Source of the DNA: a bacterium
GTDB taxonomy: Bacteria > Patescibacteriota > Microgenomatia > Woykebacterales > RBG-16-39-9b
NCBI GenBank assembly: GCA_030704665.1
Contig: JAUYID010000009.1
Span: 729,702 to 793,701 of the forward strand
DNA length: 64,000 bases
Direction of reading: 5' to 3'
Below are positions 7,217-52,113 of the stretch, piece after piece. The notes under the pieces are model-generated. The model worked only from the letters and a program-made list of their open reading frames with translations, had not been told where the DNA came from and did no database searches. The translations under genes and the position numbers were made by a program. Positions within the stretch are counted from its first letter, which is position 1, and each line of letters starts with the position of its first letter.

Positions 7217-8356
7217 ATGAAAAAAAGATTGTTCTTTCTGACAATCATCTCCCTTTTTATTCTCGGCCCCTGGATACAGGTACCCCTTTCTGCGGCCAGT
7301 CTTCCTCAAAACTCGGGTGGTTTGCTCGAGGACCTAAACAGTAATTTAAAAAGACAGGAACAGCTCAAGAAAAATATTAGTAACGCTCAAAATCAGGAAC
7401 GCAGTCTAGCCAACCAAATTTCTTATGCTAACAACCAAATTGAGCTAACCAACCTTCAAATCGAGGAAACTAACGATCGCCTCGATCTCTTGGCGGACAA
7501 AATTAAGAAGACCAAAAAGAAGCTGGCAAACGCGGTCAAAGACTACAACCACATGAACGATGTGGCTGACAGCCGAATCAGAAAGATTTACAAGGAAGGC
7601 TTCTCCGGACCACTTGATAATCTTCTAACTAGCGACAACGTCAACTATTTTCTCATCCGACAAAAGTATGCCGACGCCGTTCATCAATCAGACGTTAACT
7701 TGATGAACAACCTCAAAAAAGTACGTGACGGCATCAGTCAAGACAAAAAAGATCTGGACAAGCAAAAGTCTGACACCGAAAAGCTGAAAACCCAACTTGT
7801 TTCCCAGGAAAATTCTTTGTCGGATCAAAAATCCCAAAAGTCTTATCTGCTGAGAGTCACGAAAAACAACGAAATCACCTACCAAAGTCTGCTCGCTCAA
7901 GCCAAGGCTGAACAAGCTCAAATTCTGGTCGCTTTGGGTGGTGGCGGAGTCATCATTGGGGACGTCACCCGCGGTCAGATCATCGCCTTTCAAGGCAACT
8001 CAGGGTGTTCTAGTGGGTCCCACCTACACTTCGAATACCGTATTAATGGAAGAGCAGTTGATCCACTGCCTTATCTAAGAAGCGGTCAATTAGGTCAACC
8101 AGAAAGAGGTTACCAGATTAACCAATACTTTGGACAAAATGCAAACTGGGCCATCTATGGACCTGGAGGGCATCCAGCTATTGATATTAGCTCCGGATCT
8201 AATTCTCCAGTTTATGCGGCCAAAGCCGGCCAAGCTAGACTGATAGTTGATAGAAACAGTTACGGCTGCCCAGGAGCCTGGTGGCACCCACCGGCACGTG
8301 GGATTGTCATTGACCACTCAGACGGAAGCAAAACCCTATATTGGCACATTCGTTAG
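7217..8356 (+). CDS. EnvC-like coiled-coil murein hydrolase activator / M23 peptidase with a permuted LytM domain
   Basis: Signal peptide, then an approx 200-aa coiled coil rich in Q/K/L heptads. C-terminal LytM motifs are present but in swapped order: [24 protein letters not shown] precedes HPAIDI...[10 protein letters not shown]...LYWHI. Confidence 0.7.
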
Positions 8357-8394
8357 AAAAACTTAGCTAACTTCAAAAAAACGGCACTTATCCC

Positions 8395-8423
8395 TTGACA
8401 ACAAGTAAATAGTATGCTATAGT
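8395..8423 (+). promoter_or_regulatory. sigma70-like promoter for the transposase (TTGACA, 17-nt spacer, TATAGT)
   Basis: TTGACA at 8395-8400, spacer 8401-8417, TATAGT at 8418-8423. GAGG follows, then ATG at 8431. Confidence 0.5.
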
Positions 8424-9330
8424 GAGGCTAATGAACACTAAGTTTAGCCTCAGACAATTTAAGAGAAAATATGGTACGCACGAACAATGCTTGGAAGCTA
8501 TTAAGAAGCTACGTTTCGCAGATGAAATGGATTGTCCAAAATGCAAAAGGCTTTCAGTTTTCTACAAAGTTTCAGACCGAACCGCTTATGCCTGTAAGTT
8601 CTGTGGCTACCAAATTTACCCATTAGCAGGAACTATTTTTGAGAAAACTACTACGCCACTTGATATGTGGTTCTTTGCAATGTACTTAATGGTACAAACC
8701 CGTTCTGGTTGTTCTGCTAAACAACTGGAAAGAATGCTCGAAGTTACTTACAAGACTGCTTGGAGAATGTTTAAGCAGATTAGAGCCTTAATGGCTGACA
8801 ATTCAGGTGAGCCGTTAGACGGAATTATTGAAATTGACGAAACCTTTGTGGGTGGTAAAGCAAAGAACAGGGCAAGAAAGTGGATACAGGGCGTTGAGGG
8901 CGAGGAAAAAGAGGTTGTTATGGGTATGGTGCAAAGAGAGGGTAAAATCTATCTCAAGCACGTTCCAAATACTGGCAAGTACACTTTGCTTCGCCAAATC
9001 AAAGACCACGTTAGCCCTAAAGCTACCATTTACACTGACCAGTACGGCTCGTACAAACAACTTAACCGCTTGGGCTACAACCACTCTTGGGTAAACCACA
9101 AAAAGACTTTCGTTTATGGTGACGTTTACACTCAAAATATCGAGAACTTTTGGTCTCACCTAAAGCGTGGAATTACTGGCGTGTACCGAGTGGTAAGCAA
9201 GAAGTACCTGCAAAGCTACGTTGATGAGTTTGGTTTCCGTTATTCTAACAGAAATGTAGGCGGCGGAATGTTTGATCTACTTTTGGCACAGGTTGCAGAG
9301 GTTAAGGTTTTGAAGATTTCTGAGGAGTAG
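8422..9330 (+). CDS. IS1595-family (ISXO2-like) DDE transposase; the likely true start is ATG 8431
   Basis: N-terminal zinc ribbon (CPKCKR...CKFCGY) followed by the MWFFAMYLM...QLERML helix and GIIEIDETFVGGK, typical of the IS1595/ISXO2-like transposase family. Confidence 0.8.
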   Translation: MRLMNTKFSLRQFKRKYGTHEQCLEAIKKLRFADEMDCPKCKRLSVFYKVSDRTAYACKFCGYQIYPLAGTIFEKTTTPLDMWFFAMYLMVQTRSGCSAKQLERMLEVTYKTAWRMFKQIRALMADNSGEPLDGIIEIDETFVGGKAKNRARKWIQGVEGEEKEVVMGMVQREGKIYLKHVPNTGKYTLLRQIKDHVSPKATIYTDQYGSYKQLNRLGYNHSWVNHKKTFVYGDVYTQNIENFWSHLKRGITGVYRVVSKKYLQSYVDEFGFRYSNRNVGGGMFDLLLAQVAEVKVLKISEE

Positions 9331-9448
9331 AGGCTTTTTTCAGAACTTTAAGGAAGTCTTTTTTTGCGTCTTCCCGACCACCTTGCTTAAGCCACTCTTT
9401 GAGTTTTATATCCTGGGAAAGAGGTTTTTTCTTCACAACACAATTATA

Positions 9449-10021
9449 TCACTTAGGTGTCTGAATAGCAGAGGATGTGGCGGTGTTAATAAGGTAATTT
9501 CCCTTTGAATAAAAATTATTGAAATTTATACCGAAAAATATCAACCCAATAATTAAGAGTGTTAGCACTATATAAATAACTATTGAGCCCGCATTTTTAC
9601 CAGTTCTAAGAACAACGTGTAGAAGTAGAACAAAAAATGTAAGTAAACCAGCGGAAATTAAGGTTAAAGAAACAGCCGCTGAAAAAACAGTAACCTGCTT
9701 AAATAAAGAGAACTCTATAGATATAAAAGTGAAAAGGGCAACGAACAAACCCAACGTCTCTATAAGTTGTGTTCTATTCTCATCGAGTTTATCTTCCACT
9801 TTCTTTACTCTATCTTCCTGGCTGTTAAACTCCTTTAATATATCATTTTGTTTATCACTAAGAGTTTTTACTTCATTCTGAAGGGTTTTGGAAAATTCAT
9901 TTAGTGCTTCAATTTGGGGATAAGTTTCTACAATTTCTGGACTACCCGTAGTTGGGATTTTACTGCTTTCAGGCTTTGTTGTTTCTGGTATCGGTTCTGA
10001 TGGTTTTGGCATTTTAATCAA
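9449..10021 (-). CDS. hypothetical protein: N-terminal P/E/T-rich plus coiled-coil region, C-terminal 3-4 TM helices
   Basis: 190 aa. Contains coiled-coil heptads in the region QIEALNEFSKTLQNEVKTLSDKQNDILKEF, followed by hydrophobic helices. Sits in a strongly AT-rich region. Confidence 0.5.
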   Translation of the reverse strand: MIKMPKPSEPIPETTKPESSKIPTTGSPEIVETYPQIEALNEFSKTLQNEVKTLSDKQNDILKEFNSQEDRVKKVEDKLDENRTQLIETLGLFVALFTFISIEFSLFKQVTVFSAAVSLTLISAGLLTFFVLLLHVVLRTGKNAGSIVIYIVLTLLIIGLIFFGINFNNFYSKGNYLINTATSSAIQTPK

Positions 10022-10769
10022 AAATACTTGAATACATGTCTTTTTTATCTAATTTATTATCAGCTTCTTGTATAAACGTCTTAATTTTTTCGGAATCCCA
10101 ATTCATATCTTTGTCCTGCCGAGTATTTATATCTTTCATCAACATTATTACTTTTCCCTTATTACCCACATTTTTTATTCCATCGCCGATAGTAACAACT
10201 TGATTGCAATCAATATTATTCAATGTTAAATTGAATGTTAGATTGAAGAGGAAAGTTCTTAAATTCTCTGTAAGCCTTTCTTTAAAAACAGTTTCTGAGA
10301 TATCCTTGGTAGGGTTTTGGGAAAGAAAGAATATCTCCTTTATATACCCAACCCTTTTCATTTTGTTCTGGGAAGGACTATGATGAAATATAATGTCAGA
10401 GAGTTTCCCGACTAAATCTTGAATTTTATCTAATGGAAGTGAAAAGGAAGATATTTCCGTTTGATTAATCCACTGAATGTTTATTTTGTCAAAACTCAAA
10501 TTGCACGCAACTGAATTATCTTTGGATCTAAGTAAAAGCCTTGGTATTTCACGAGGGGCAGTGCTTGGAATTGGTAAAATAATGTTATTTCCATCAGAAA
10601 ATACATCAACCCCATCCCTTATCTCTTCTAACAGGATATTTAAATCAGAAATATAAAAATCTTTTGGGAAAAGAGCTACCTCGTATTTATTTATAACTAA
10701 ATTTCGTTCAGCCATAAGTGGAACGAATTTTATCAAACTTTTAATGAATTTACTAGTCCTTGTTCTCAT
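10014..10769 (-). CDS. hypothetical cytoplasmic protein (no recognisable domain), translationally coupled to the downstream TM protein
   Basis: 251 aa. Overlaps the next gene by 8 nt. AT-rich, with N/K/I-rich composition atypical of the window. Confidence 0.5.
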   Translation of the reverse strand: MRTRTSKFIKSLIKFVPLMAERNLVINKYEVALFPKDFYISDLNILLEEIRDGVDVFSDGNNIILPIPSTAPREIPRLLLRSKDNSVACNLSFDKINIQWINQTEISSFSLPLDKIQDLVGKLSDIIFHHSPSQNKMKRVGYIKEIFFLSQNPTKDISETVFKERLTENLRTFLFNLTFNLTLNNIDCNQVVTIGDGIKNVGNKGKVIMLMKDINTRQDKDMNWDSEKIKTFIQEADNKLDKKDMYSSIFD

Positions 10770-10828
10770 GGTATAGGTGCCAAAAAAACCCCTTGACTTA
10801 GCGCTAAATTTTCATTAATTTATCTTTC

Positions 10829-11995
10829 GTGTCCAAAAAACTGCTCAGTTTTTTCTTTTCAACAATTTTGGTTTTTGCTTTCTCGAAGCAAGCCTTGGCT
10901 AGTTCCTTGCCTGCTCCTACCGTTCCAGACACAGTAAAAGCGACTGAAAATTTTACAGTAAGTTTCAGCCTTAGTCTTGATCCAAATTACAACTACTATG
11001 CAAAGGTAAGACTTGGTACCGAGACAAGCAATCTTAAATATGGGCAAACTTACAACTCAGCATCAGATCAATGGTTAACTGATTCAGATGCTTGGACTTC
11101 TTTTCCAGTTTTTACAACAAACTCTGCTGGTACTTTGTCCGCTAGTTTAACAGCCAAAACTTCAAGTAACGTTGTCCTAGGATCAAATTTAATTCGGATA
11201 GCCGTGAGAAGAACTGACACAAAAACTACTCTTCAGAGCGAAACGGCTAATATCAATGTCGAGGCGGCACCTCCAAACCAAGATTCCGACTCGGATGGTA
11301 ATACTGGCTCAACCGACCCAACTCCAAAGCTTAACTTAAAGCTAGCCTTGTCAGAATTTATGCCCAATCCGGAAACAGGGGAGAAAGAATGGGTCGAAAT
11401 TCGCAATTTGGCCAGCTCTAGCGCTGATCTTTACGGTTGGAAAATTGACGATGGTCCCGCCGGTTCTTCGCCACTGACGCTTGAGGAAAACTCAACTATC
11501 GCCGGCTTTGGCTATAAAGTTTTTTATTTACCTTCGAAGCTAAACAATTCCGGGGACAGCCTTCGTCTCCTCAAACCTGACGGCTCAGAAGCTGACGTGG
11601 TAAATTTCGGGGAAACAACCAAGGGGGTTTCTTTTGCCAAAGGCTCTTCCGGTATCTGGCAACAAACCCTGACCCCGACTCCGGCAGCAGCGAACATTAT
11701 CAACACCGGGGAAGTCCTTGGCTCTACGGATACCAGTAAGTCTTCTCTGACGGAAAATCCCAAAAGCGACAACTATTCACTTGATGTTCTTACCCCTCTG
11801 GAAGCAACTGCCTCAAGCCACTCCGGAAAGCAAGCTAGTCCGGTCAAAAATCTTTTTGCTTCTGAATCCCCAAAGGGTTTCTTTTGGATCTTGGTCGTGA
11901 TTGGAGGTTTTTTGCTAGTAACTTCTTTAACTATTTTTGGGATCAAATCAGGATTTTTCCGAAAAATCTTTTCTAAAAACGCGAAGAGCAGTTGA
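10829..11995 (+). CDS. secreted lamin-tail-domain (LTD) protein with C-terminal TM anchor
   Basis: Signal peptide. LTD signature LSEFMPNPETGEKEWVEIRNLASSSADLYGWKIDDG...GDSLRLLKPDGSEADVV. C-terminal hydrophobic helix plus a basic tail. Confidence 0.65.
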   Translation: MSKKLLSFFFSTILVFAFSKQALASSLPAPTVPDTVKATENFTVSFSLSLDPNYNYYAKVRLGTETSNLKYGQTYNSASDQWLTDSDAWTSFPVFTTNSAGTLSASLTAKTSSNVVLGSNLIRIAVRRTDTKTTLQSETANINVEAAPPNQDSDSDGNTGSTDPTPKLNLKLALSEFMPNPETGEKEWVEIRNLASSSADLYGWKIDDGPAGSSPLTLEENSTIAGFGYKVFYLPSKLNNSGDSLRLLKPDGSEADVVNFGETTKGVSFAKGSSGIWQQTLTPTPAAANIINTGEVLGSTDTSKSSLTENPKSDNYSLDVLTPLEATASSHSGKQASPVKNLFASESPKGFFWILVVIGGFLLVTSLTIFGIKSGFFRKIFSKNAKSS

Positions 11996-12036
11996 GGGGG
12001 TGTGAAAACCCAGCAACTGCTCGTGCGATCTACTCT

Positions 12037-12954
12037 CTACTTATCTCCCGGTATGTAGCAGGTACCAACACTCCCGTCCTCATAGACCAAGCAGACCTTG
12101 ATGAGGCGGGCGGCGTTGACAAAGTCGAGAAACTCTTCCGCGCTCGCCGGCAACTCGATTGGTGCCTCACCAACCGGGCAGACCACCCAATCGTCATTTT
12201 CATGGGGGACTCCCGCTCGAGCTTGATAAGTGCCTCCGGAGTCTTCCCCACAGAGAGAATCTGTGCTTGAGTATGAGACCTCTACGCCATCAGCCAAAAG
12301 TATTGTGGCGCTGAGACTGAAGTTGATGTCCCGGTCCGAGTCGTTGAAAACCCAACCCCGGATCACGAAAACGGGGACATTGGTAACCTCATCCCTCCAG
12401 AACTGGTTGTTGTAGGGCTTGTCCACCCGTTCGAAGCTGACTTTTCCTGCGAGCAAAGTGGCAAAGCCACCCCCTACCTCAATAGTTGCTGCCTCCTCTG
12501 CTTGTTGATCAGCCTCGGCTTGAGCCGTAGCAGCAGCATTTTTCTCTTGCTGCTCGGCTGTAGCGGTGAAGTGGATGTCACTGGCATCGACACTCCAAAT
12601 CCCTTGAGATTTGATCAGGTCAAAGATACCATCTTCTTCGACCTCTGAGGTTCCCTCTTTACGAACGGCGATCAGGTGAACCCGGTAGAGGTAATCGTCG
12701 CCAACACTGTCGTACCAACTCAGGCACTTGATCTCAAGCAGGCCGTCGACACCTTTGAGCGCTTTTTCAGCTACCTGAAGTTGCTCGTCCGTCAGCTTGA
12801 CCTCATCGTCGGCACAGATCGACAGCTTCTCCAAACCTGTACCAGCGATTCTCTGGGGAACCGACGGCTGCTCGACAAGGCGCTTACTCCCCCCACCACA
12901 AGCAGCTGCAATCAAGACCACTGAAGTGGCCAAGAAAATGAACCCTCTCATGAT
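12037..12954 (-). CDS. lipoprotein of unknown function; the start is probably MRGFIFL (12954), not the longest ORF
   Basis: Lipobox LIAAAC-GGG. Acidic A/E/Q-rich middle segment. Confidence 0.55.
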   Translation of the reverse strand: MMRGFIFLATSVVLIAAACGGGSKRLVEQPSVPQRIAGTGLEKLSICADDEVKLTDEQLQVAEKALKGVDGLLEIKCLSWYDSVGDDYLYRVHLIAVRKEGTSEVEEDGIFDLIKSQGIWSVDASDIHFTATAEQQEKNAAATAQAEADQQAEEAATIEVGGGFATLLAGKVSFERVDKPYNNQFWRDEVTNVPVFVIRGWVFNDSDRDINFSLSATILLADGVEVSYSSTDSLCGEDSGGTYQARAGVPHENDDWVVCPVGEAPIELPASAEEFLDFVNAARLIKVCLVYEDGSVGTCYIPGDK

Positions 12955-13089
12955 CCTCTCTCCCTTCCTTAAGTCGTTTTTGTGACTATTAATTATACGC
13001 CCAAAAGGCAATTTTTTCCTTATTTGGCCCCTTGAAAAGGGCTTTCAATTAGGCTAGTTTTAAGGCAAAGCCCATCAACTCAAGCTAAA

Positions 13090-13640
13090 GCCGATTTTTC
13101 TTCTGGGAGGGGGAGATGCTTTTCAAAGTTAATCTAAAGGCAGTTCCAGCCCGACGCCTGCGGCAGATTCTCAAAAACGTCGGTTTGGAAGTAAGCACGA
13201 ATGACATCTGCTTTAACGATCATCGGGTTGGTGGTTTCAACTATGCTAGCGGCAACCTACTCGGATTCACTCTGGAAGAAGCCACGGGCGAAGTCCTGAA
13301 GGCTTGGCTGTCCCGGAACGAACAGTCTTCAAGGTCTAGAAGAATCTTAAGAGTTCTTGGCCTCACCTCGTTCTTGGGCAAATGGAACCAAGACTTAAAG
13401 TACACCGACTCCCATCCTTTCGGGGAAGGGATCTTTATTGGTCCGCTCCCCAAAGAAGACAGCTCAGCTTACCCGGGCGGCGCAGGAACAGTGAAAACTG
13501 TCTCTTTGCGAGAGCGTTTGAGTGCTTCGAAGCACCTTACTCCCCGCCAAAGCCGGCGTCGAGTCAGCCCGCGCAAGTAGTTCCCAACTCTGCTACAGAC
13601 CTGGACCGCTCTTAAATTCGGAGCTAAGGGCGGTCCAGCC
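13090..13640. other. GC-rich non-coding-looking segment (candidate structured RNA or decayed foreign fragment); identity unresolved
   Basis: Local GC is well above its flanks. Overlapping nonsense ORFs on both strands and multiple frames. Strong hairpin GGACCGC...GCGGUCC at approx 13597-13630. No T-arm, tmRNA tag or RNase P P4 could be matched. Confidence 0.2.
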
Positions 13641-13686
13641 AAACCAATTTCTTAAAGACCCTTTTTTGTTGTAAACTCTTTTAGTC

Positions 13687-14085
13687 ATGGAATACTTAAC
13701 TCAAAGCCCAGAGGAAACCAGGCAACTTGGAAAAACCTTGGCGAGCTCTTTAAAATCGAAAGTAATTGTTCTCTTTGGTGAGCTTGGAGCCGGTAAGACT
13801 CACTTTGTTCAAGGTTTAGCACAAGGACTAGGAATAGAAAAAAGAGTCCTCTCGCCAACTTTCATTTTTATCCGACCTTACACGGAAAACAACTTTTATC
13901 ATGTCGATCTTTATCGCCTGGAAAAGGAAAGTGAAATTTCTGCCCTGGGCTTGGAGGAAATTTTGGAAGAAAAGGGTGCCACGATAGTCATCGAGTGGCC
14001 GGAAAAGATTATTAGTAAGTTAAAAGACCCGGTCAAAATCTATTTTGAAAAAGCTTCAGAAAACGAAAGAAAGATCAAGGTTTAG
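13687..14085 (+). CDS. tsaE: tRNA threonylcarbamoyladenosine biosynthesis protein TsaE
   Basis: P-loop FGELGAGKTHFVQG, a conserved SPTF-like segment (LSPTFIFIRPY), approx 130 aa, typical of TsaE/YjeE. Confidence 0.8.
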   Translation: MEYLTQSPEETRQLGKTLASSLKSKVIVLFGELGAGKTHFVQGLAQGLGIEKRVLSPTFIFIRPYTENNFYHVDLYRLEKESEISALGLEEILEEKGATIVIEWPEKIISKLKDPVKIYFEKASENERKIKV

Positions 14086-27938: not shown

Positions 27939-29297
27939 GTGATTGTTATTAAATTCGGCGGAACCTCGGTTTCGACCAAAGACAGAATCTCGAATATTTG
28001 CGAAATAGTGAGTAAAAGAGTCACCAAAAAACCAGTAGTGGTTGTATCGGCTTTATCTGGCGTTACCGACTTACTTATTTTGGCTACGAAACCACCTGAA
28101 CAGTCGGAAAGTCTTTTTCAAAGAATCAGAGAAATTCACGTTGATCTAGTAAAGAATATCTGGAAAGAAGATGCAGCTGCAAGTAAAATAATTTCTTATG
28201 TAGACTCTACTCTTGAAGAAGCAAAAAAAGTTTCAAGTAAGGGCAATCTAGATAAATCTTCTACTGATAAACTCTCTTCCTTCGGAGAAATTATGTCTTC
28301 CTACATAGTTAACGAAGCATTAAAAAGTAGTGGAATTAAATCACAACAGGTGTTAGCAACTGAGTTGATTGTTACTGACAACAATTTTGGCGAAGCTGAA
28401 TTCCTTCCTGGAGAAACCAGGAAGGCAGTAAACAAAAACCTAAAACCTTTAATTGAGAAAGGATTAATTCCAGTGGTCACTGGATTCATTGGCTCAACAC
28501 AGGATGGGAAAACTACTACCTTGGGAAGAGGGGGTTCTGACTACTCAGCCTCAATAATTGGCTACTGTTTAAACGCTGATGAATTAGAGATTTGGACTGA
28601 TGTTGACGGGATTCTAACTGCTGATCCTAAATTAGTAAAAACAGCAAAGCTTCTAGATAGAATTTCTTATAAGGAGGCTTCAGAGCTAGCTACTTTTGGC
28701 GCTAGGGTTCTGCACCCAAGATCGATTAGACCGGCAGTAAAAGCAGGAATTCCTGTTCGAATATTAAATAGTTTTAATCTTCAATCAAAGGGTACCTCTA
28801 TTTTAGAGAAACACCAGTCTAAAAACCATATTACCGCAATTTCCTCAAAGACAAAGGTAACTCTGGTGAATATTTATTCTACAGAAATGCTTTTAAGTAA
28901 AGGTTTTTTAGCAAGAATCTTTGAAGTTTTTACCCGTCATAATATTTCAGTGGATTTAGTAAGTGTTTCTGAGGTTAGCGTATCCGTTACTTTAGATAAT
29001 AAAGATAGTATGGCCTCAGTTGTAGAAGAACTTTCGGAATTTGCCTCTGTTAATACCTCGGAGGGCTTTGGTATGGTTTCTTTAATCGGAGAGGGAGTTG
29101 TTGCTTCTTCAAAAAACATTAGCCGTATTTTTGACATCTTAGATAAAGAAGGAATTTTAGTTAAAATGGTCTCACTTGGTTCTACTGATATAAACGTCAG
29201 TCTAATTATCAGACGAGAACAGATAGAAAAAGCAGTTGTAGTTCTCCACGACCAAATATTATTAAACAATTCTAACTACATAGGAGTTAAAAAATGA
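27939..29297 (+). CDS. lysC: aspartate kinase
   Basis: VIKFGGTSV N-terminus, amino-acid kinase core and two C-terminal ACT-like repeats. Confidence 0.85.
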   Translation: MIVIKFGGTSVSTKDRISNICEIVSKRVTKKPVVVVSALSGVTDLLILATKPPEQSESLFQRIREIHVDLVKNIWKEDAAASKIISYVDSTLEEAKKVSSKGNLDKSSTDKLSSFGEIMSSYIVNEALKSSGIKSQQVLATELIVTDNNFGEAEFLPGETRKAVNKNLKPLIEKGLIPVVTGFIGSTQDGKTTTLGRGGSDYSASIIGYCLNADELEIWTDVDGILTADPKLVKTAKLLDRISYKEASELATFGARVLHPRSIRPAVKAGIPVRILNSFNLQSKGTSILEKHQSKNHITAISSKTKVTLVNIYSTEMLLSKGFLARIFEVFTRHNISVDLVSVSEVSVSVTLDNKDSMASVVEELSEFASVNTSEGFGMVSLIGEGVVASSKNISRIFDILDKEGILVKMVSLGSTDINVSLIIRREQIEKAVVVLHDQILLNNSNYIGVKK

Positions 29298-30034
29298 AAA
29301 TTGCTTTAATTGGTTACGGAAACATGGGTAAAGAAATCGAAAAGGTTCTCTCTGAAACTAAGAATCACGAGATTGTTTCCGTTAGTTACAGGAAAACAAC
29401 CGATGGTTTAGATAAAGAAGGCATTAAAAAGGCTGACGTAGCTTTAGACTTTACTTCCCCAGAGATAGTATTGAACAATACAAGAGAAGTAGCGTCTTTA
29501 GGTAAGAATTTGGTTATTGGAACTACTGGTTGGTATGATAATCTCGAAGAAGTTAAAAGTCTAGTAAAAGAAAATAACATCGGTTTGATTTATGGTCAGA
29601 ACTTTTCCATTGGGGCTAATATATTCTTCAAAATTGTCGCTTTTGGCAGTAGCCTATTAAGCAGATTTGGGGACTATGATGTTTTCGGTTATGAAATCCA
29701 TCACAAAGGCAAAAAAGATAGCCCCAGTGGTACTGCAAGGAAACTTTCTAGTTTAATTATGAAAAACTTTCCTAGTAAAAAGACTCTCCAAGAAAACAAA
29801 CTCGATAGGCAAATAAAAGATGAGGAGTTGCATTTTGCTTCGGTTCGAGGTGGTCACAACACGGGTCTTCATGAAGTAGTGTTTGATAGCCAGGCGGACG
29901 AAATTGGTCTCACCCACAGGACTCACGGAAGACGCGGTTTTGCAGAGGGGGCTATAATGGCAGCTGAGTTTATTGACGGTAAAAAAGGACTTTATACAGT
30001 TGATGATTTATTTGATCAGGAGAATTTAAAATGA
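29294..30034 (+). CDS. dapB: 4-hydroxy-tetrahydrodipicolinate reductase
   Basis: KIALIGYGNMGKEI Rossmann N-terminus and EIHHKGKKDSPSGTA. 246 aa. Confidence 0.85.
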   Translation: MKIALIGYGNMGKEIEKVLSETKNHEIVSVSYRKTTDGLDKEGIKKADVALDFTSPEIVLNNTREVASLGKNLVIGTTGWYDNLEEVKSLVKENNIGLIYGQNFSIGANIFFKIVAFGSSLLSRFGDYDVFGYEIHHKGKKDSPSGTARKLSSLIMKNFPSKKTLQENKLDRQIKDEELHFASVRGGHNTGLHEVVFDSQADEIGLTHRTHGRRGFAEGAIMAAEFIDGKKGLYTVDDLFDQENLK

Positions 30035-30918
30035 GTAAGAAATTTATTGGGGCAATAACAGCGCTAGTAACACCTTTCCAGGAAAACGGCAATGTCGATG
30101 TCGAGGCATTAAAAGGCCTTGTTAAATTCCAAATTGATAGTGGTATTTATGGAATTGTTCCTTGTGGTTCAACAGGAGAAGCGGCCACTTTAAACCTTGA
30201 AGAGTATGAATTAGTTGTAAAAACAGTCGTGGATGAAACTAAGGGAAGAGTTCCTGTCATTGCCGGAGCAGGAAGTAACGATACTCAAAAAGCAATAGAA
30301 TTTTCAAAAATAGCAAAGAAAGTTGGAGCAGATGCACTACTTCATGTCAGCCCCTACTACAATAAACCTACTCCAGACGGACTAGTGGCTCATTTCAAAG
30401 CAATTGCTGATGCGGTTGACTTACCGATTATTATTTACAACGTACCTGGTAGAACTGGACTTAATATCAAAGCGGAAACAACTTTAAGAATTGCTAAAGA
30501 AGTACCAGCAGTTGTAGGAATAAAAGAGGCCTCAGGTGACTTAAATCAGATGATGGAAATTATTAAAGGAGTACCAGAAAGTTTTTCAGTTCTCTCTGGA
30601 GATGATTCTTTAACTTTGCCTTTAATGATTCTAGGTGGTAAGGGATGTATTTCTGTAGTTTCCAATGAAGTTCCTAAAGAGTTTTCTGAGATGGTTAGCG
30701 CTGCGTTGGAAGGTAATTGGAAAAAAGCAAAAGAACTTCACTTTGAACTGTTAGATCTTATGAATGTCAACTTCATTGAAACTAATCCAATACCCGTTAA
30801 AACCTCACTTGCTCTTATGGGGAAAATTAAAGAGGTGTTTCGTTTGCCGTTAGTAAAAATAACTGACAAAAACAGAGAAATTCTCTCCCAAGTATTAAAA
30901 AAGCAAAATCTAATATGA
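30031..30918 (+). CDS. dapA: 4-hydroxy-tetrahydrodipicolinate synthase
   Basis: GAITALVTPF...GSTGEAATL...IIYNVPGRTG. Confidence 0.85.
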   Translation: MSKKFIGAITALVTPFQENGNVDVEALKGLVKFQIDSGIYGIVPCGSTGEAATLNLEEYELVVKTVVDETKGRVPVIAGAGSNDTQKAIEFSKIAKKVGADALLHVSPYYNKPTPDGLVAHFKAIADAVDLPIIIYNVPGRTGLNIKAETTLRIAKEVPAVVGIKEASGDLNQMMEIIKGVPESFSVLSGDDSLTLPLMILGGKGCISVVSNEVPKEFSEMVSAALEGNWKKAKELHFELLDLMNVNFIETNPIPVKTSLALMGKIKEVFRLPLVKITDKNREILSQVLKKQNLI

Positions 30919-31961
30919 GTAAAATAAAAGTTGGAATTTTAGGTGCAACGGGTAATGTTGGGCAAAGATTTGTCCAACTTTTATCTGACCATCCCTGGTT
31001 TGAAATAGCCAATCTTTGCGCTTCAGAGAAAAGCGCAGGTAAACCTTATAAAGAGGTAGTTAATTGGAAAGTCTCTGCTAGTATTCCCAAGAAGGCAGAA
31101 AATTTAGTAGTTGGTCTTTGTGAACCCAAAATAGATGCCAAAATAGTTTTTTCTGGTCTTGATTCATCAGTAGCTGGCGAAATAGAAGAAAGATTCGCCA
31201 AAGCTGGTTATGTCGTAATAAGTAATTCTAAAAACCACCGTATGGATCCAGATGTTCCCCTACTTATTCCAGAAGTAAATCCTGATCATTTAGCTTTGGT
31301 TGAGCAGCAAAAGAAAAGGTTTGGCAGTGGAGGTTTTATAGTAACCAACCCAAACTGCACTACAGTTGGACTTACTATGGTTCTAAAACCATTACATGAC
31401 GCTTTCGTAATAAAGCAGGCAGTAGTTACAACTATGCAAGCTCTGTCTGGTGCAGGTTATCCAGGAGTTCCTTCCTTGGACACTATTGATAATGTGGTTC
31501 CTTACATAGGCGACGAAGAAGATAAAGTAGAAACCGAACCTTTAAAACTTCTTGGAAAATTTTCGGAAAGTAAGGTTATTGACGCATCAATCAAAATAGA
31601 CGCTCATTGTAATAGAGTTTCGGTAAGAGACGGACATCTAGAAACAATAACACTAGGTTTTGAAAAGAAACCTTCAATTGAAGAGGTTATAAAAGTTTTA
31701 GAGAAATTCACCGCTCTTCCTCAAGAGCTAAAGTTACCATCGGCTCCAAAACAACCTATCGTTTACCGAAGTGAAAATGATAGACCTCAACCTTCTTTGG
31801 ATAGAGATATCAATAATGGTATGTCAGTTACTGTGGGGAGGGTAAGAGAATCAAAAACAATGCATATTAAACTGACCTTATTGGTTCACAACACCATTAG
31901 AGGTGCTGCCGGTGCCGCTATATTGAATGCGGAGCTTTTAAAAGCAAAAGGTCTCATCTAA
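30915..31961 (+). CDS. asd: aspartate-semialdehyde dehydrogenase
   Basis: GATGNVGQRF N-terminus and active-site NPNCTT. Confidence 0.85.
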   Translation: MSKIKVGILGATGNVGQRFVQLLSDHPWFEIANLCASEKSAGKPYKEVVNWKVSASIPKKAENLVVGLCEPKIDAKIVFSGLDSSVAGEIEERFAKAGYVVISNSKNHRMDPDVPLLIPEVNPDHLALVEQQKKRFGSGGFIVTNPNCTTVGLTMVLKPLHDAFVIKQAVVTTMQALSGAGYPGVPSLDTIDNVVPYIGDEEDKVETEPLKLLGKFSESKVIDASIKIDAHCNRVSVRDGHLETITLGFEKKPSIEEVIKVLEKFTALPQELKLPSAPKQPIVYRSENDRPQPSLDRDINNGMSVTVGRVRESKTMHIKLTLLVHNTIRGAAGAAILNAELLKAKGLI

Positions 31962-50561: not shown

Positions 50562-51524
50562 TTAGTAATAAATTGTTTGGGTGAGATGGTAGGGCTTATC
50601 CAGTTTGGTTTTGTCTTGGGAAGCAATCCAGAGGACATTTTGCAAGTCAAGTTGGTTGAGTTTAATTCCTCTCTTTTCTAACCTCTCGGCAAGAAGTTGG
50701 CAAGCCCAAAGCATACTGGCCCGAATTTCAATTTCTTCTTCACTTCCCTGGTCTAGCTCAACTCGGTTGTCCACTTTTTCAGCCAAATCACGCCTGTATT
50801 TGAGCAAACCCAAAGTGCGCAAAATCGCTGGAACTTTGTAGTCAGCAAAGCCGTGCATCTCTTCAATCCCGACAATCGGCTCAACTAGGTGGTGCAAGTC
50901 AGCCAAAACTACTTGCGTTTTTTTGTAAAAGTAAACTTCTTTGCCTTTATACGTTGGGACATCATCAAAACCCTGAAGCTCGCTTGCTAGCCCTGCAACA
51001 AGAGTTAGGGCGTCCTTTTTGTGCTCCTCAAAGAAATTGCCAAACTTGCCCTGATACTTTTCAACCAACCTCTCCCCAAGCGCTTTCATGAGATCGTAGC
51101 GCTGTCTCAAAAGTGGAGTTTCCGGTTCCCCTCGATAGATTTCCTGGGTTTTTTCGAGACTAAGATCAGCAAGAAAATTTCCGTCACTAATGTCGTTGCC
51201 TTCTTCGAGCGCTCTCTCAAAAGCAGCAATATTGCCCCACCAACCGTCAAGCTTTTGTCCCTTGTACTCAAGCGTCCATTTACTCGGGTGACCCCAATAG
51301 CAAAAAGCTTGGTTGCCCAGAACAATCAAAAAACCAATTTCTTTTTCTTTGGGTCGGTCGGATTTGTAGCCTAGTGGATAAGCGCGGCTCCAATGAACAG
51401 TTTTTGTGGGAACAAAGTTTTTGGCATAGGAATCAATAGCTTCTTCGTCAATGGTAACTAATTGAGCCTGATCAACTACATTTTTAACCGAGTCGAGGAT
51501 TTTTTCTTTGGTTAACATGTGCAA
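50562..51524 (-). CDS. hypothetical protein, possibly queuosine-salvage (DUF2419/Qng1-like) family
   Basis: 320 aa. Assignment is from overall recollection of the family, not a decisive motif. Confidence 0.4.
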   Translation of the reverse strand: MHMLTKEKILDSVKNVVDQAQLVTIDEEAIDSYAKNFVPTKTVHWSRAYPLGYKSDRPKEKEIGFLIVLGNQAFCYWGHPSKWTLEYKGQKLDGWWGNIAAFERALEEGNDISDGNFLADLSLEKTQEIYRGEPETPLLRQRYDLMKALGERLVEKYQGKFGNFFEEHKKDALTLVAGLASELQGFDDVPTYKGKEVYFYKKTQVVLADLHHLVEPIVGIEEMHGFADYKVPAILRTLGLLKYRRDLAEKVDNRVELDQGSEEEIEIRASMLWACQLLAERLEKRGIKLNQLDLQNVLWIASQDKTKLDKPYHLTQTIYY

Positions 51525-52113
51525 AAGATACTAGCATATTTTTGTAATAAGAAAAAAGTTGCATTAATTCCGTCTTCGCTTTCATCTGATCAACTATCGA
51601 CTTAAATTTTTTCTCATTCAACTTTCCTGACTCTAAAATTTCCAAAATATCTTTCTCATCCTTTTTTCCCATTCGCTGACCGCGCCGGTGTATCAAGTAG
51701 TAAAGAAAAATATTTTCTAAAGAGGTCACTGGTAAACTAATACCTAAGTAACGTTCGTAAGTGATATTAGAGAAAAATTCTTCTGAGAACGGGACCTCAA
51801 ATCTGACTCCTTCACGTACCGTAACCAACTCGGTAGTAATATCAAATTCTCCGTCCTCGATTTCAATACAGTGATTATCGTAGCGGCCGTGATAAATGTT
51901 TTTCGGTCGTCTCAGGCTGACTTTTGTTTTTAGTTGTTTTTCTAGAAAAAGATAGAGCTCTTTGATGTTGGGGTGGAAAACTCTAAAGTCGATATCTTGA
52001 TGGTTACCTTGAAAGCCTAGTAGGTAAAGTCCAATTCCCGCATGTATGTAGTATTTATATTTTTCAGTTTCTAAAACATTTTTTATTTCTCTCAAGGTTC
52101 CTAAATTTATCAA
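51484..52113 (-). CDS. putative nucleotidyltransferase-fold protein
   Basis: HAGIGLYLLGFQGNHQDIDF fits hG[GS]x9-13DhD. Overlaps the downstream gene by 41 nt. Confidence 0.3.
   Translation of the reverse strand: MINLGTLREIKNVLETEKYKYYIHAGIGLYLLGFQGNHQDIDFRVFHPNIKELYLFLEKQLKTKVSLRRPKNIYHGRYDNHCIEIEDGEFDITTELVTVREGVRFEVPFSEEFFSNITYERYLGISLPVTSLENIFLYYLIHRRGQRMGKKDEKDILEILESGKLNEKKFKSIVDQMKAKTELMQLFSYYKNMLVSFAHVNQRKNPRLG

Follow-up and report, generated by a model that had tools for sequence, protein, structure and literature searches.

A mobile two-gene cassette in a Patescibacteriota genome: a soluble protein of a new family, a small membrane protein and a candidate abortive-infection module

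What is the function of two AT-rich genes that lie beside a transposase in a patescibacterial genome, and do they belong to the host at all? The genes are located on the minus strand of a stretch of 64,000 nt (in the following the window) of contig JAUYID010000009.1, positions 729,702 to 793,701, from a bacterium of the Woykebacterales (assembly GCA_030704665.1). The upstream gene, here designated A, occupies positions 10014-10769 and the downstream gene, B, positions 9449-10021. A first inspection of the bare sequence (the original prediction) had described two minus-strand open reading frames (ORFs) of 251 and 190 aa at these positions and had taken them for a horizontally acquired accessory cassette, such as a sensor plus membrane-effector pair in defence or abortive infection (Abi). 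Both ORFs are present as described. That A-B is a horizontally mobile accessory two-gene cassette is well supported by the present analysis. Its function can be read from context only, and with a confidence that stays a little short of even we consider it a new toxin-antitoxin (TA)-like Abi module, in which B would be the membrane effector and A the cytoplasmic sensor or regulator.

The two genes form one co-inherited operon. For 44 metagenome loci that had been retrieved by the motif F[VI]ALFTFI in the first transmembrane (TM) helix of B alone, A genes were called with local hidden Markov models (HMMs). In 29 of these loci an A-family gene was found directly upstream of B and on the same strand, at a distance of -34 to +10 nt; another five contain too little upstream sequence to tell. 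The order A then B with tight gaps holds for all loci that have both genes (29/29) and for the paired loci collected before. Pairwise distances of A and of B are correlated (Mantel r = 0.82, p <= 0.0005, 30 pairs), and the pairing is kept even where A is only ~19-24% identical to A of the window (L013, L023): the partner protein in L023 still reads IETLAIFVALFTFVS, and the partner in the spirochaete locus L013 has the same layout of a stalk and three TM helices.

The junction of the two genes (TTGATTAAAATG, 10010-10021, minus strand) offers two starts for B. A TTG codon at 10021 yields the 190-aa ORF and an overlap of 8 nt with A; an ATG codon at 10012 yields 187 aa and leaves a spacer of 1 nt after the TAA stop codon of A (10014-10016). 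Since the N-terminus 'MPxPS' is conserved among the closest homologues and the NCBI product of the same gene (Q8P13_04315, annotated on a MAG contig of 938 kb) comprises 187 aa, the ATG codon at 10012 is probably the start of B. The overlap of 8 nt in the original prediction thus depends on the less likely TTG codon, but the tight coupling of A and B stands whichever start holds, and the arrangement of the junction would imply that the two genes are translationally coupled. The start of A is ambiguous because the NCBI product (Q8P13_04320, 233 aa) begins at the ATG codon at 10715, and the 18-aa N-terminal extension of the 251-aa form, which begins at the ATG codon at 10769, has a counterpart only in P0005. 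Many antitoxin-toxin and sensor-effector pairs are arranged in the same way, with a larger soluble gene first and a small membrane gene abutting or overlapping it.

The base composition sets the pair apart from its surroundings. The cassette has a GC content of 0.321 in comparison to 0.436 +/- 0.036 for windows of equal length (z = -3.2), as the original prediction had expected from the AT-richness of the letters; it is the 1.3 kb of lowest GC content in the 64-kb window, and only 0.08% of the windows are as low. At the level of single genes z(GC) amounts to -2.7 for A and -2.1 for B, and z for GC at third codon positions to about -1.8 (A) and -2.0 (B).

The distribution of the pair is sparse. 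Its close clade was found in only 2 of ~185,000 GTDB species representatives, namely a Woesebacteria metagenome-assembled genome (MAG) and a 3.6-kb contig that was binned to a gammaproteobacterial MAG. The flanks of the pair are unrelated in every genome that carries it, which is not the picture of core genes in normal synteny, and the housekeeping proteins that flank the pair of the window are all singletons at 90% identity. In a prophage of Neobacillus niacini, where a 111-aa protein with two TM helices is the partner of A, the pair is inserted between the tail genes and the lysis genes. Mobilizable ColE1-like plasmids of 3 kb, known from E. coli, Salmonella and Klebsiella, have an A-family gene (HMM E 1.4e-42) that overlaps the gene for a 127-aa partner with a hydrophilic N-terminus and ~2 hydrophobic TM-like segments, as in L070 (pEC3-6, NZ_CP060984.1, 1916-2973) and L069 (NZ_CP041118.1; A proteins WP_022631128 / WP_023233475, partner WP_022631129); NZ_CP081883.1 is another such plasmid of E. 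coli. Apart from Rop, MobA, a fragment for replication initiation and a single short hypothetical ORF these plasmids have no further genes, so that the pair is their only cargo gene pair. Among 5426 complete E. coli genomes it was found in 6, in no case on a chromosome. As to the 3.6-kb contig (L019 / L008, CAZITH010000125.1), it was binned to an 'uncultured Gammaproteobacteria' MAG and has an A-B pair of the type found in the candidate phyla radiation (CPR); in L005 and L006 this pair is accompanied by an integrase and an Omega-like repressor. The contig was probably either binned wrongly or is a small mobile element.

How the cassette came to its present place may still be visible at its borders. 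An imperfect direct repeat of 17 nt (15/17 identical) brackets A-B almost exactly: the left copy, GTTTTTTCTTCACAACA, occupies 9424-9440, and the right copy, GTTTTTTCTTTTCAACA, occupies 10848-10864 inside the signal-peptide codons of the adjoining gene for a lamin-tail-domain surface protein. In abbreviated form the repeat reads GTTTTTTCTT..CAACA. A match of at least 15/17 occurred in only 6 of 2000 random placements within the window (0.3%), in a test that was made post hoc. The repeat could be an insertion footprint or a target duplication. The deviating GC content, the bracketing repeat, the sparse clade, the differing flanks and the carriage by an integrase element, a prophage and plasmids together indicate the accessory and mobile status of the pair and bear out this part of the original prediction.

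The neighbouring transposase gene (8422-9330, plus strand) is of the IS1595 family (PF12762, E 3.5e-38; PF12760, E 1.3e-9), lies outside the module and converges with B at a stop-to-stop distance of 118 nt, which agrees with the proximity noted initially. It is single-copy within the 64-kb window. No clear terminal inverted repeats of the insertion sequence (IS) were detected between 8360 and 9450, where the best pair had 17 nt at 76% and was partly located inside the coding sequence; the element may be decayed. Homologous pairs in other genomes do not adjoin IS1595. A composite transposon or a passenger of IS1595 was considered and rejected, as there is a single IS copy in the window and no inverted repeats surround IS plus cassette.

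Which properties of B would suit a membrane effector? B has an acidic, disordered N-terminus, a long stalk, three TM helices and a Ser/Thr/Pro-rich C-terminal tail after the third. The stalk (9761-9919, residues 32-84) is coiled-coil-like, acidic and predicted to be cytoplasmic, and is continuous with TM1 (9695-9760), which contains the invariant motif GLFVALFTFIS.EFS.F; in the AlphaFold2 (AF2) model both are parts of one helix of residues 32-106. TM2 (9608-9685) and TM3 (9527-9592) correspond to residues 110-135 and 141-162 of this model; all these features are on the minus strand. The original prediction of a coiled coil plus 3-4 C-terminal TM helices is to be corrected to three helices on the basis of hydropathy and the AF2 model, and the coiled coil appears as sub-threshold matches and as the long helix of the model. 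The isoelectric point (pI) of the N-terminal part is 4.2-4.8 across the family. The sole basic loop (RTGK) connects TM2 and TM3, which by the positive-inside rule suggests a topology with the N-terminus inside and the C-terminus outside. Searches of B against Pfam-A, NCBIfam, PADLOC (PADLOC-DB v2.0.0) and PHROGs returned only sub-threshold coiled-coil and TM noise (PADLOC coiled-coil E >= 0.002). No PDB sequence matched B, and a Foldseek search of the PDB returned nothing at E <= 1e-3; the top match, NINJ1 (E 0.74), lacks significance and was given no weight.

Protein A represents a large family. An exhaustive profile search with a cutoff of E <= 1e-3 retrieved 628 representative clusters (50% identity), and 170 were left when the cutoff was tightened to E <= 1e-10; the best 150 matches listed are nearly all of ~200-265 aa, with few shorter fragments and no larger fusions. 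The absence of a recognisable motif in the original prediction is in agreement with the lack of any match of A in Pfam, NCBIfam and PADLOC; in PHROGs the A protein of the window gave a weak match to a family of unknown function. Searches with 26 diverse A members likewise led to no curated family in Pfam and NCBIfam, to no consistent match in PADLOC and to no match among PDB sequence profiles at E <= 10, and two PHROGs of unknown function were matched by 15 (phrog_22817) and 11 (phrog_24110) of the 26.

The confident AF2 model of A (predicted local distance difference test, pLDDT, 90.2; predicted template modelling score, pTM, 0.88) shows a two-lobed alpha/beta fold with the element order beta-alpha-beta4-alpha followed by beta-alpha-beta3-alpha-alpha. 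Foldseek found no neighbour of the model in the PDB at E <= 1e-3. In BFVD the top match was an uncharacterised viral protein (E 2.8e-8, TM-score 0.51). The other matches were uncharacterised proteins of giant viruses and, more weakly (E 2e-4 to 6e-3, TM-scores 0.25-0.34), a pithovirus TFIID and giant-virus proteins like VETF-L, the large subunit of poxvirus VETF. These matches and the order of secondary structure elements recall the TATA-binding protein (TBP) or a helix-grip fold. However, the TM-scores are low, no TBP is among the top PDB matches listed, the A family is acidic and not basic, and the two halves of A are dissimilar, an alignment of the N-terminal with the C-terminal half by hhalign having revealed no similarity and thus no internal duplication. 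In proteins other than TBP, the TBP domain is reported to be present in one copy only (PMC3597702). The topology of the model may be called TBP-like or helix-grip-like only as a weak assignment.

Conserved positions are few across the whole A family. The best conserved motif, DAPxEIPR, is part of a Pro-rich loop of lobe 1 ('LPIPSTAPREIPR', 10539-10577, minus strand), which comprises residues 47-59 of the 233-aa form and is a loop in the model, too. Residues A53, P54, P58 and R59 are invariant in alignment A4, and P48 and P54 are nearly invariant in alignment A3; the loop is a candidate interaction surface. In lobe 2 the conserved strand positions are R121, N171, D195, N197 and T198. The last three belong to the motif 'DINT' (residues 195-198; 10122-10133, minus strand) on a beta-strand of the model, of which D195 is invariant and N197 nearly invariant across the 26 diverse members, and together with R121 and N171 the motif constitutes a polar patch. 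A contains no catalytic-looking motif, and its conserved residues suggest binding rather than catalysis. The pI is mildly acidic (family median 5.8; A of the window 5.6). Because of the missing catalytic-looking motif and this pI, the role of an adaptor fits A better than that of an enzyme or of a constitutive DNA-binding protein. Identities as a CYTH/triphosphate-tunnel protein or as a 2H-phosphoesterase, to which low-probability fold and NCBIfam hits had pointed, were rejected, as the motifs that define these superfamilies are not conserved in the A family.

The functional assignment depends on the company that the pair keeps. Neighbouring genes were clustered and scanned against protein families and PADLOC, and the architectures were tabulated. 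Type III restriction-modification (R-M) genes adjoin the module in several loci (PADLOC MTase_III, 4e-184, for Mod; REase_III, 4e-92, for Res). Mod-like genes are present in at least 11 loci, and in L029, L036/L037 and L061 the distance from the end of B to the start of Mod is 2, -4 or 12 nt. In L011 (7855-9084; also in L025 and L026) genes for an EcoO109I-type restriction enzyme and a DNA methylase directly adjoin a degraded pair, in which A has lost the N-terminus and B is split into ORFs of 63 and 110 aa. Further neighbours are NsnB (4e-51), an NsnC-like protein, HEPN, GIY-YIG and RhuM in L013, EcoRII-C and NYN in L017 (NYN genes recur in other loci), and SNF2, Mod, Res and an integrase in L023. 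The original prediction had proposed to look for homologous pairs in known defence islands, and such pairs thus do occur in several loci beside type II and type III R-M genes and beside NsnB/C. This fits a sensor and membrane-effector pair, by guilt through association.

A second line of evidence is the exchange of partners. A ClpP-like serine protease of the SDH type (PF01972, E 1.6e-16, ~341 aa) is encoded directly upstream of A-B in L029, L034, L039, L043, L044, L056 and L057, and one extra gene separates it from A in L036/L037 and L063. The order protease-DUF6941-B is found in L031, L049 and L061, protease-B in L041 and DUF6864-B in L030. Two modules lie close together in L045 (1230-4572) and L065 (7168-11026), where A-B is followed by protease-DUF6941 and an ORF of ~141 aa; the profile of B did not match this last ORF in either locus. 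B can hence be combined with A, DUF6941 or DUF6864, and A with a B-type protein, with a protein of two TM helices or with two soluble partners, with the PF01972 protease as an option. Modular shuffling of this kind is typical of conflict systems. The clade of the window (the window, L001, L002, L005, L009, L017 and L024) has uniformly the two-gene form without protease. Neither the size of the family nor the three-gene protease variants and the variants with swapped partners could have been seen in the original prediction.

How could such a module work? In the TA-like Abi module that we tentatively favour, B would be the effector: anchored in the inner membrane by its three TM helices, with the acidic helical stalk in the cytoplasm, this small protein would oligomerise once released or activated and compromise the membrane. 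A would be its non-enzymatic, cytoplasmic, two-lobed alpha/beta partner, would bind the stalk of B and restrain it, and would make B respond to a trigger, for example the infection by a phage. In other clades the upstream ClpP-like serine protease would probably act as activator by cleavage of A or of the N-terminal region of B; the clade of the window would possess the two-gene core only. The contact of A and B, the toxicity or pore activity of B, the trigger and the role of the protease are all inferred.

Several findings weigh against this assignment. A membrane effector is not universal, since in L015 (4777-5726) and L021 (7708-8793) the place of B downstream of the A homologue is taken by two soluble proteins, the first of 171 or 216 aa and the second of ~142 aa; the ~142-aa proteins of the two loci match each other (BLASTP, E < 1e-4), and none of the four soluble partners has a Pfam or PADLOC match. 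PADLOC models match neither A nor B nor the partner proteins nor the PF01972 protease. The counts of defence neighbours are raw counts, not set against a background from whole genomes, and small genomes commonly contain R-M genes. The pair of the window itself is adjoined by an IS and by no defence gene. When three members of the A family were compared with 50,697 phage records by tblastn, no match was obtained, and limited scans of IMG/VR gave nothing or one partial match.

Is the module one of the systems already described? A full-text search of the literature (DUF6941; SDH_sah + defence; TBP-like + anti-phage) found no description of such a system. The closest functional analogue may be RexA/RexB of phage lambda. 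RexA (31 kDa) is soluble, RexB (16 kDa) is predicted to have four TM helices, and RexA interacts with RexB (PMC11077077). Like A-B, RexAB is an operon of two genes carried by a mobile element, in which the first gene encodes a soluble protein of ~30 kDa and the second a small polytopic protein of the inner membrane; in addition, RexA and RexB are thought to act jointly against phage. The two pairs differ in that B has three TM helices and a long stalk whereas RexB has four and no stalk, and in that A is mildly acidic whereas RexA binds DNA. Homology was rejected, as hhalign gave a probability of 0.2% (E 0.3) for A (profile A3) versus RexA and of 0.2% for B (profile A2) versus RexB; the structure of RexA was absent from the top 50 PDB matches listed for the A model, none of which was significant. 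Kiwa likewise consists of two genes for a membrane and a soluble protein. However, its TM gene comes first (KwaA, multi-TM; KwaB, DUF4868) and the order here is the reverse. Kiwa is ruled out by this order and by the lack of PADLOC matches to KwaA/KwaB among the window proteins and the 26 diverse A members. The original prediction had found neither Kiwa nor any other known two-gene system in the pair, and this has proved right.

Other likenesses concern general types. TA-like Abi pairs with membrane toxins share with A-B the coupled soluble-upstream and membrane-downstream genes, the carriage on plasmids, prophages and defence islands and the swapped partners, but no TA or Abi family of PADLOC, Pfam or NCBIfam was matched. 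Gene order and coupling would also fit a type II TA system, an autoregulated operon in which a small antitoxin with a DNA-binding domain is encoded upstream of the toxin. A far exceeds the usual size of antitoxins, and the domain searches revealed no DNA-binding domain in it. Bacterial gasdermins are reportedly encoded in operons with associated proteases, and the three-gene relatives of A-B similarly link a dedicated protease to a putative membrane-damaging effector in defence islands. In contrast to gasdermins, B is an integral membrane protein without a gasdermin match in Pfam or by structure, the protease is of the ClpP-like SDH type (PF01972) and not caspase-like or a subtilase, and the clade of the window has no protease. 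A-B is a candidate conflict module that has not been described before. Its general plan, a soluble regulator plus a membrane effector, is familiar; its protein families are new.

A wider version of the TA-like Abi assignment is possible but appreciably less probable. According to it the pair would be the minimal form of an unrecognised, widespread immune family, in which a stalk plus 3-TM effector, B, is placed under interchangeable adaptors (A, DUF6941, DUF6864), is accompanied by a protease in many lineages and is often wired into type III R-M operons as a second-line, membrane-targeting abortive layer. If this was true, the ultra-small genomes of CPR/Patescibacteria would acquire such systems as well.

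Two further explanations are unlikely, one about as much as the other. The pair could be a pure addiction module that stabilises its carrier elements by post-segregational killing and has no anti-phage role, with B as membrane toxin and A as labile antitoxin that is cut by a host protease or by the linked one. The antitoxin-like gene order with its tight coupling, the carriage as sole cargo by the 3-kb plasmids and also by an integrase element, and the linked protease of other clades would be in line with this; with ~230 aa, however, A is large for an antitoxin and gave no DNA-binding domain hit, and many copies are chromosomal and lie within or beside R-M operons and defence genes. Addiction overlaps with the TA-like Abi module, as many TA systems also act in defence. 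Alternatively, A-B could be a non-killing scaffold of membrane-tethered regulated proteolysis, loosely like NfeD-stomatin operons, in which B is an anchor whose stalk recruits the adaptor A, and the protease where present, for the processing of a substrate; the location in defence islands would then be incidental. This would account for the PF01972 protease upstream of A-B in at least 9 loci, for DUF6941 or DUF6864 in the adaptor position of A and for the long stalk, which in the model of B resembles a docking element. The whole clade of the window is, however, without the protease, the sparse and mobile distribution with plasmid and prophage carriage contrasts with a housekeeping role, and no SPFH/stomatin-like structure is among the top PDB matches listed for A.

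Still less probable is an exclusion function in the service of the mobile element, by which B under the control of A would block the entry of competing plasmids or phages without killing of the host. The moron position of the pair between the tail and lysis genes of the Neobacillus prophage, its presence on small mobilizable plasmids and the predicted exposure of the Ser/Thr/Pro-rich tail of the membrane protein B would suit such a function, but many copies are chromosomal, beside R-M genes and with no element nearby, and a cytoplasmic partner and a cytoplasmic protease would be unexpected for a simple surface block. That A might be a secreted or contact-delivered toxin and B its membrane immunity protein is very improbable: ColE1-type plasmids are the classic carriers of colicin operons, and B resembles in size and TM count the immunity proteins of pore-forming colicins (such as those of colicins E1 and A) with their 3-4 TM helices, but A has no signal peptide, toxin domain hit or lysis gene partner, the long acidic cytoplasmic stalk of B is not a feature of immunity proteins, and gene order, co-orientation and the linkage to R-M and protease genes do not fit.

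If A-B is indeed a defence or Abi module, A would represent a new protein family of at least 628 clusters at 50% identity without a Pfam entry, and B a new family of membrane effectors. The module would add a new case of protease-linked membrane effectors in bacterial immunity and would suggest a functional link of type III R-M systems with a back-up killing device. It would also be among the few immune modules other than R-M and CRISPR in a reduced genome of the CPR type, in which every gene is costly. The members in cultured hosts, above all the 3-kb plasmid of E. coli, Salmonella and Klebsiella, provide a tractable experimental handle.

The surroundings of the cassette are heterogeneous. 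Scans of the locus for promoters and terminators gave nothing above chance, and no Rfam elements were found in 8000-14000. The gap between B and the transposase gene is occupied by a minus-strand ORF of 43 codons (VKKKPLSQDIKLKEWLKQGGREDAKKDFLKVLKKAS..., 9304-9433) that overlaps the 3' end of the transposase gene; it may be due to chance or represent the remnant of a gene that was interrupted by the IS. On the other side the gene for the lamin-tail-domain protein, which adjoins A, is followed by two GC-rich genes (12037-13011, minus strand, 0.53; 13116-13580, plus strand, 0.52; z about +2) without Pfam match. Farther out the locus has housekeeping flanks, with ftsE, ftsX and an M23 peptidase gene on one side and tsaE and the gene for UMP kinase on the other. 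With an IS, an AT-rich pair and GC-rich genes, the region of 8.4-13.6 kb between ftsEX-M23 and tsaE is a compositional mosaic and may be a variable region of the genome. Elsewhere in the window the GC content is also low at 28501-29821 (0.356), at 30551-31871 (0.368) and in a gene for a 209-aa protein at 51484-52113 (0.349), and these stretches may be more acquired segments.

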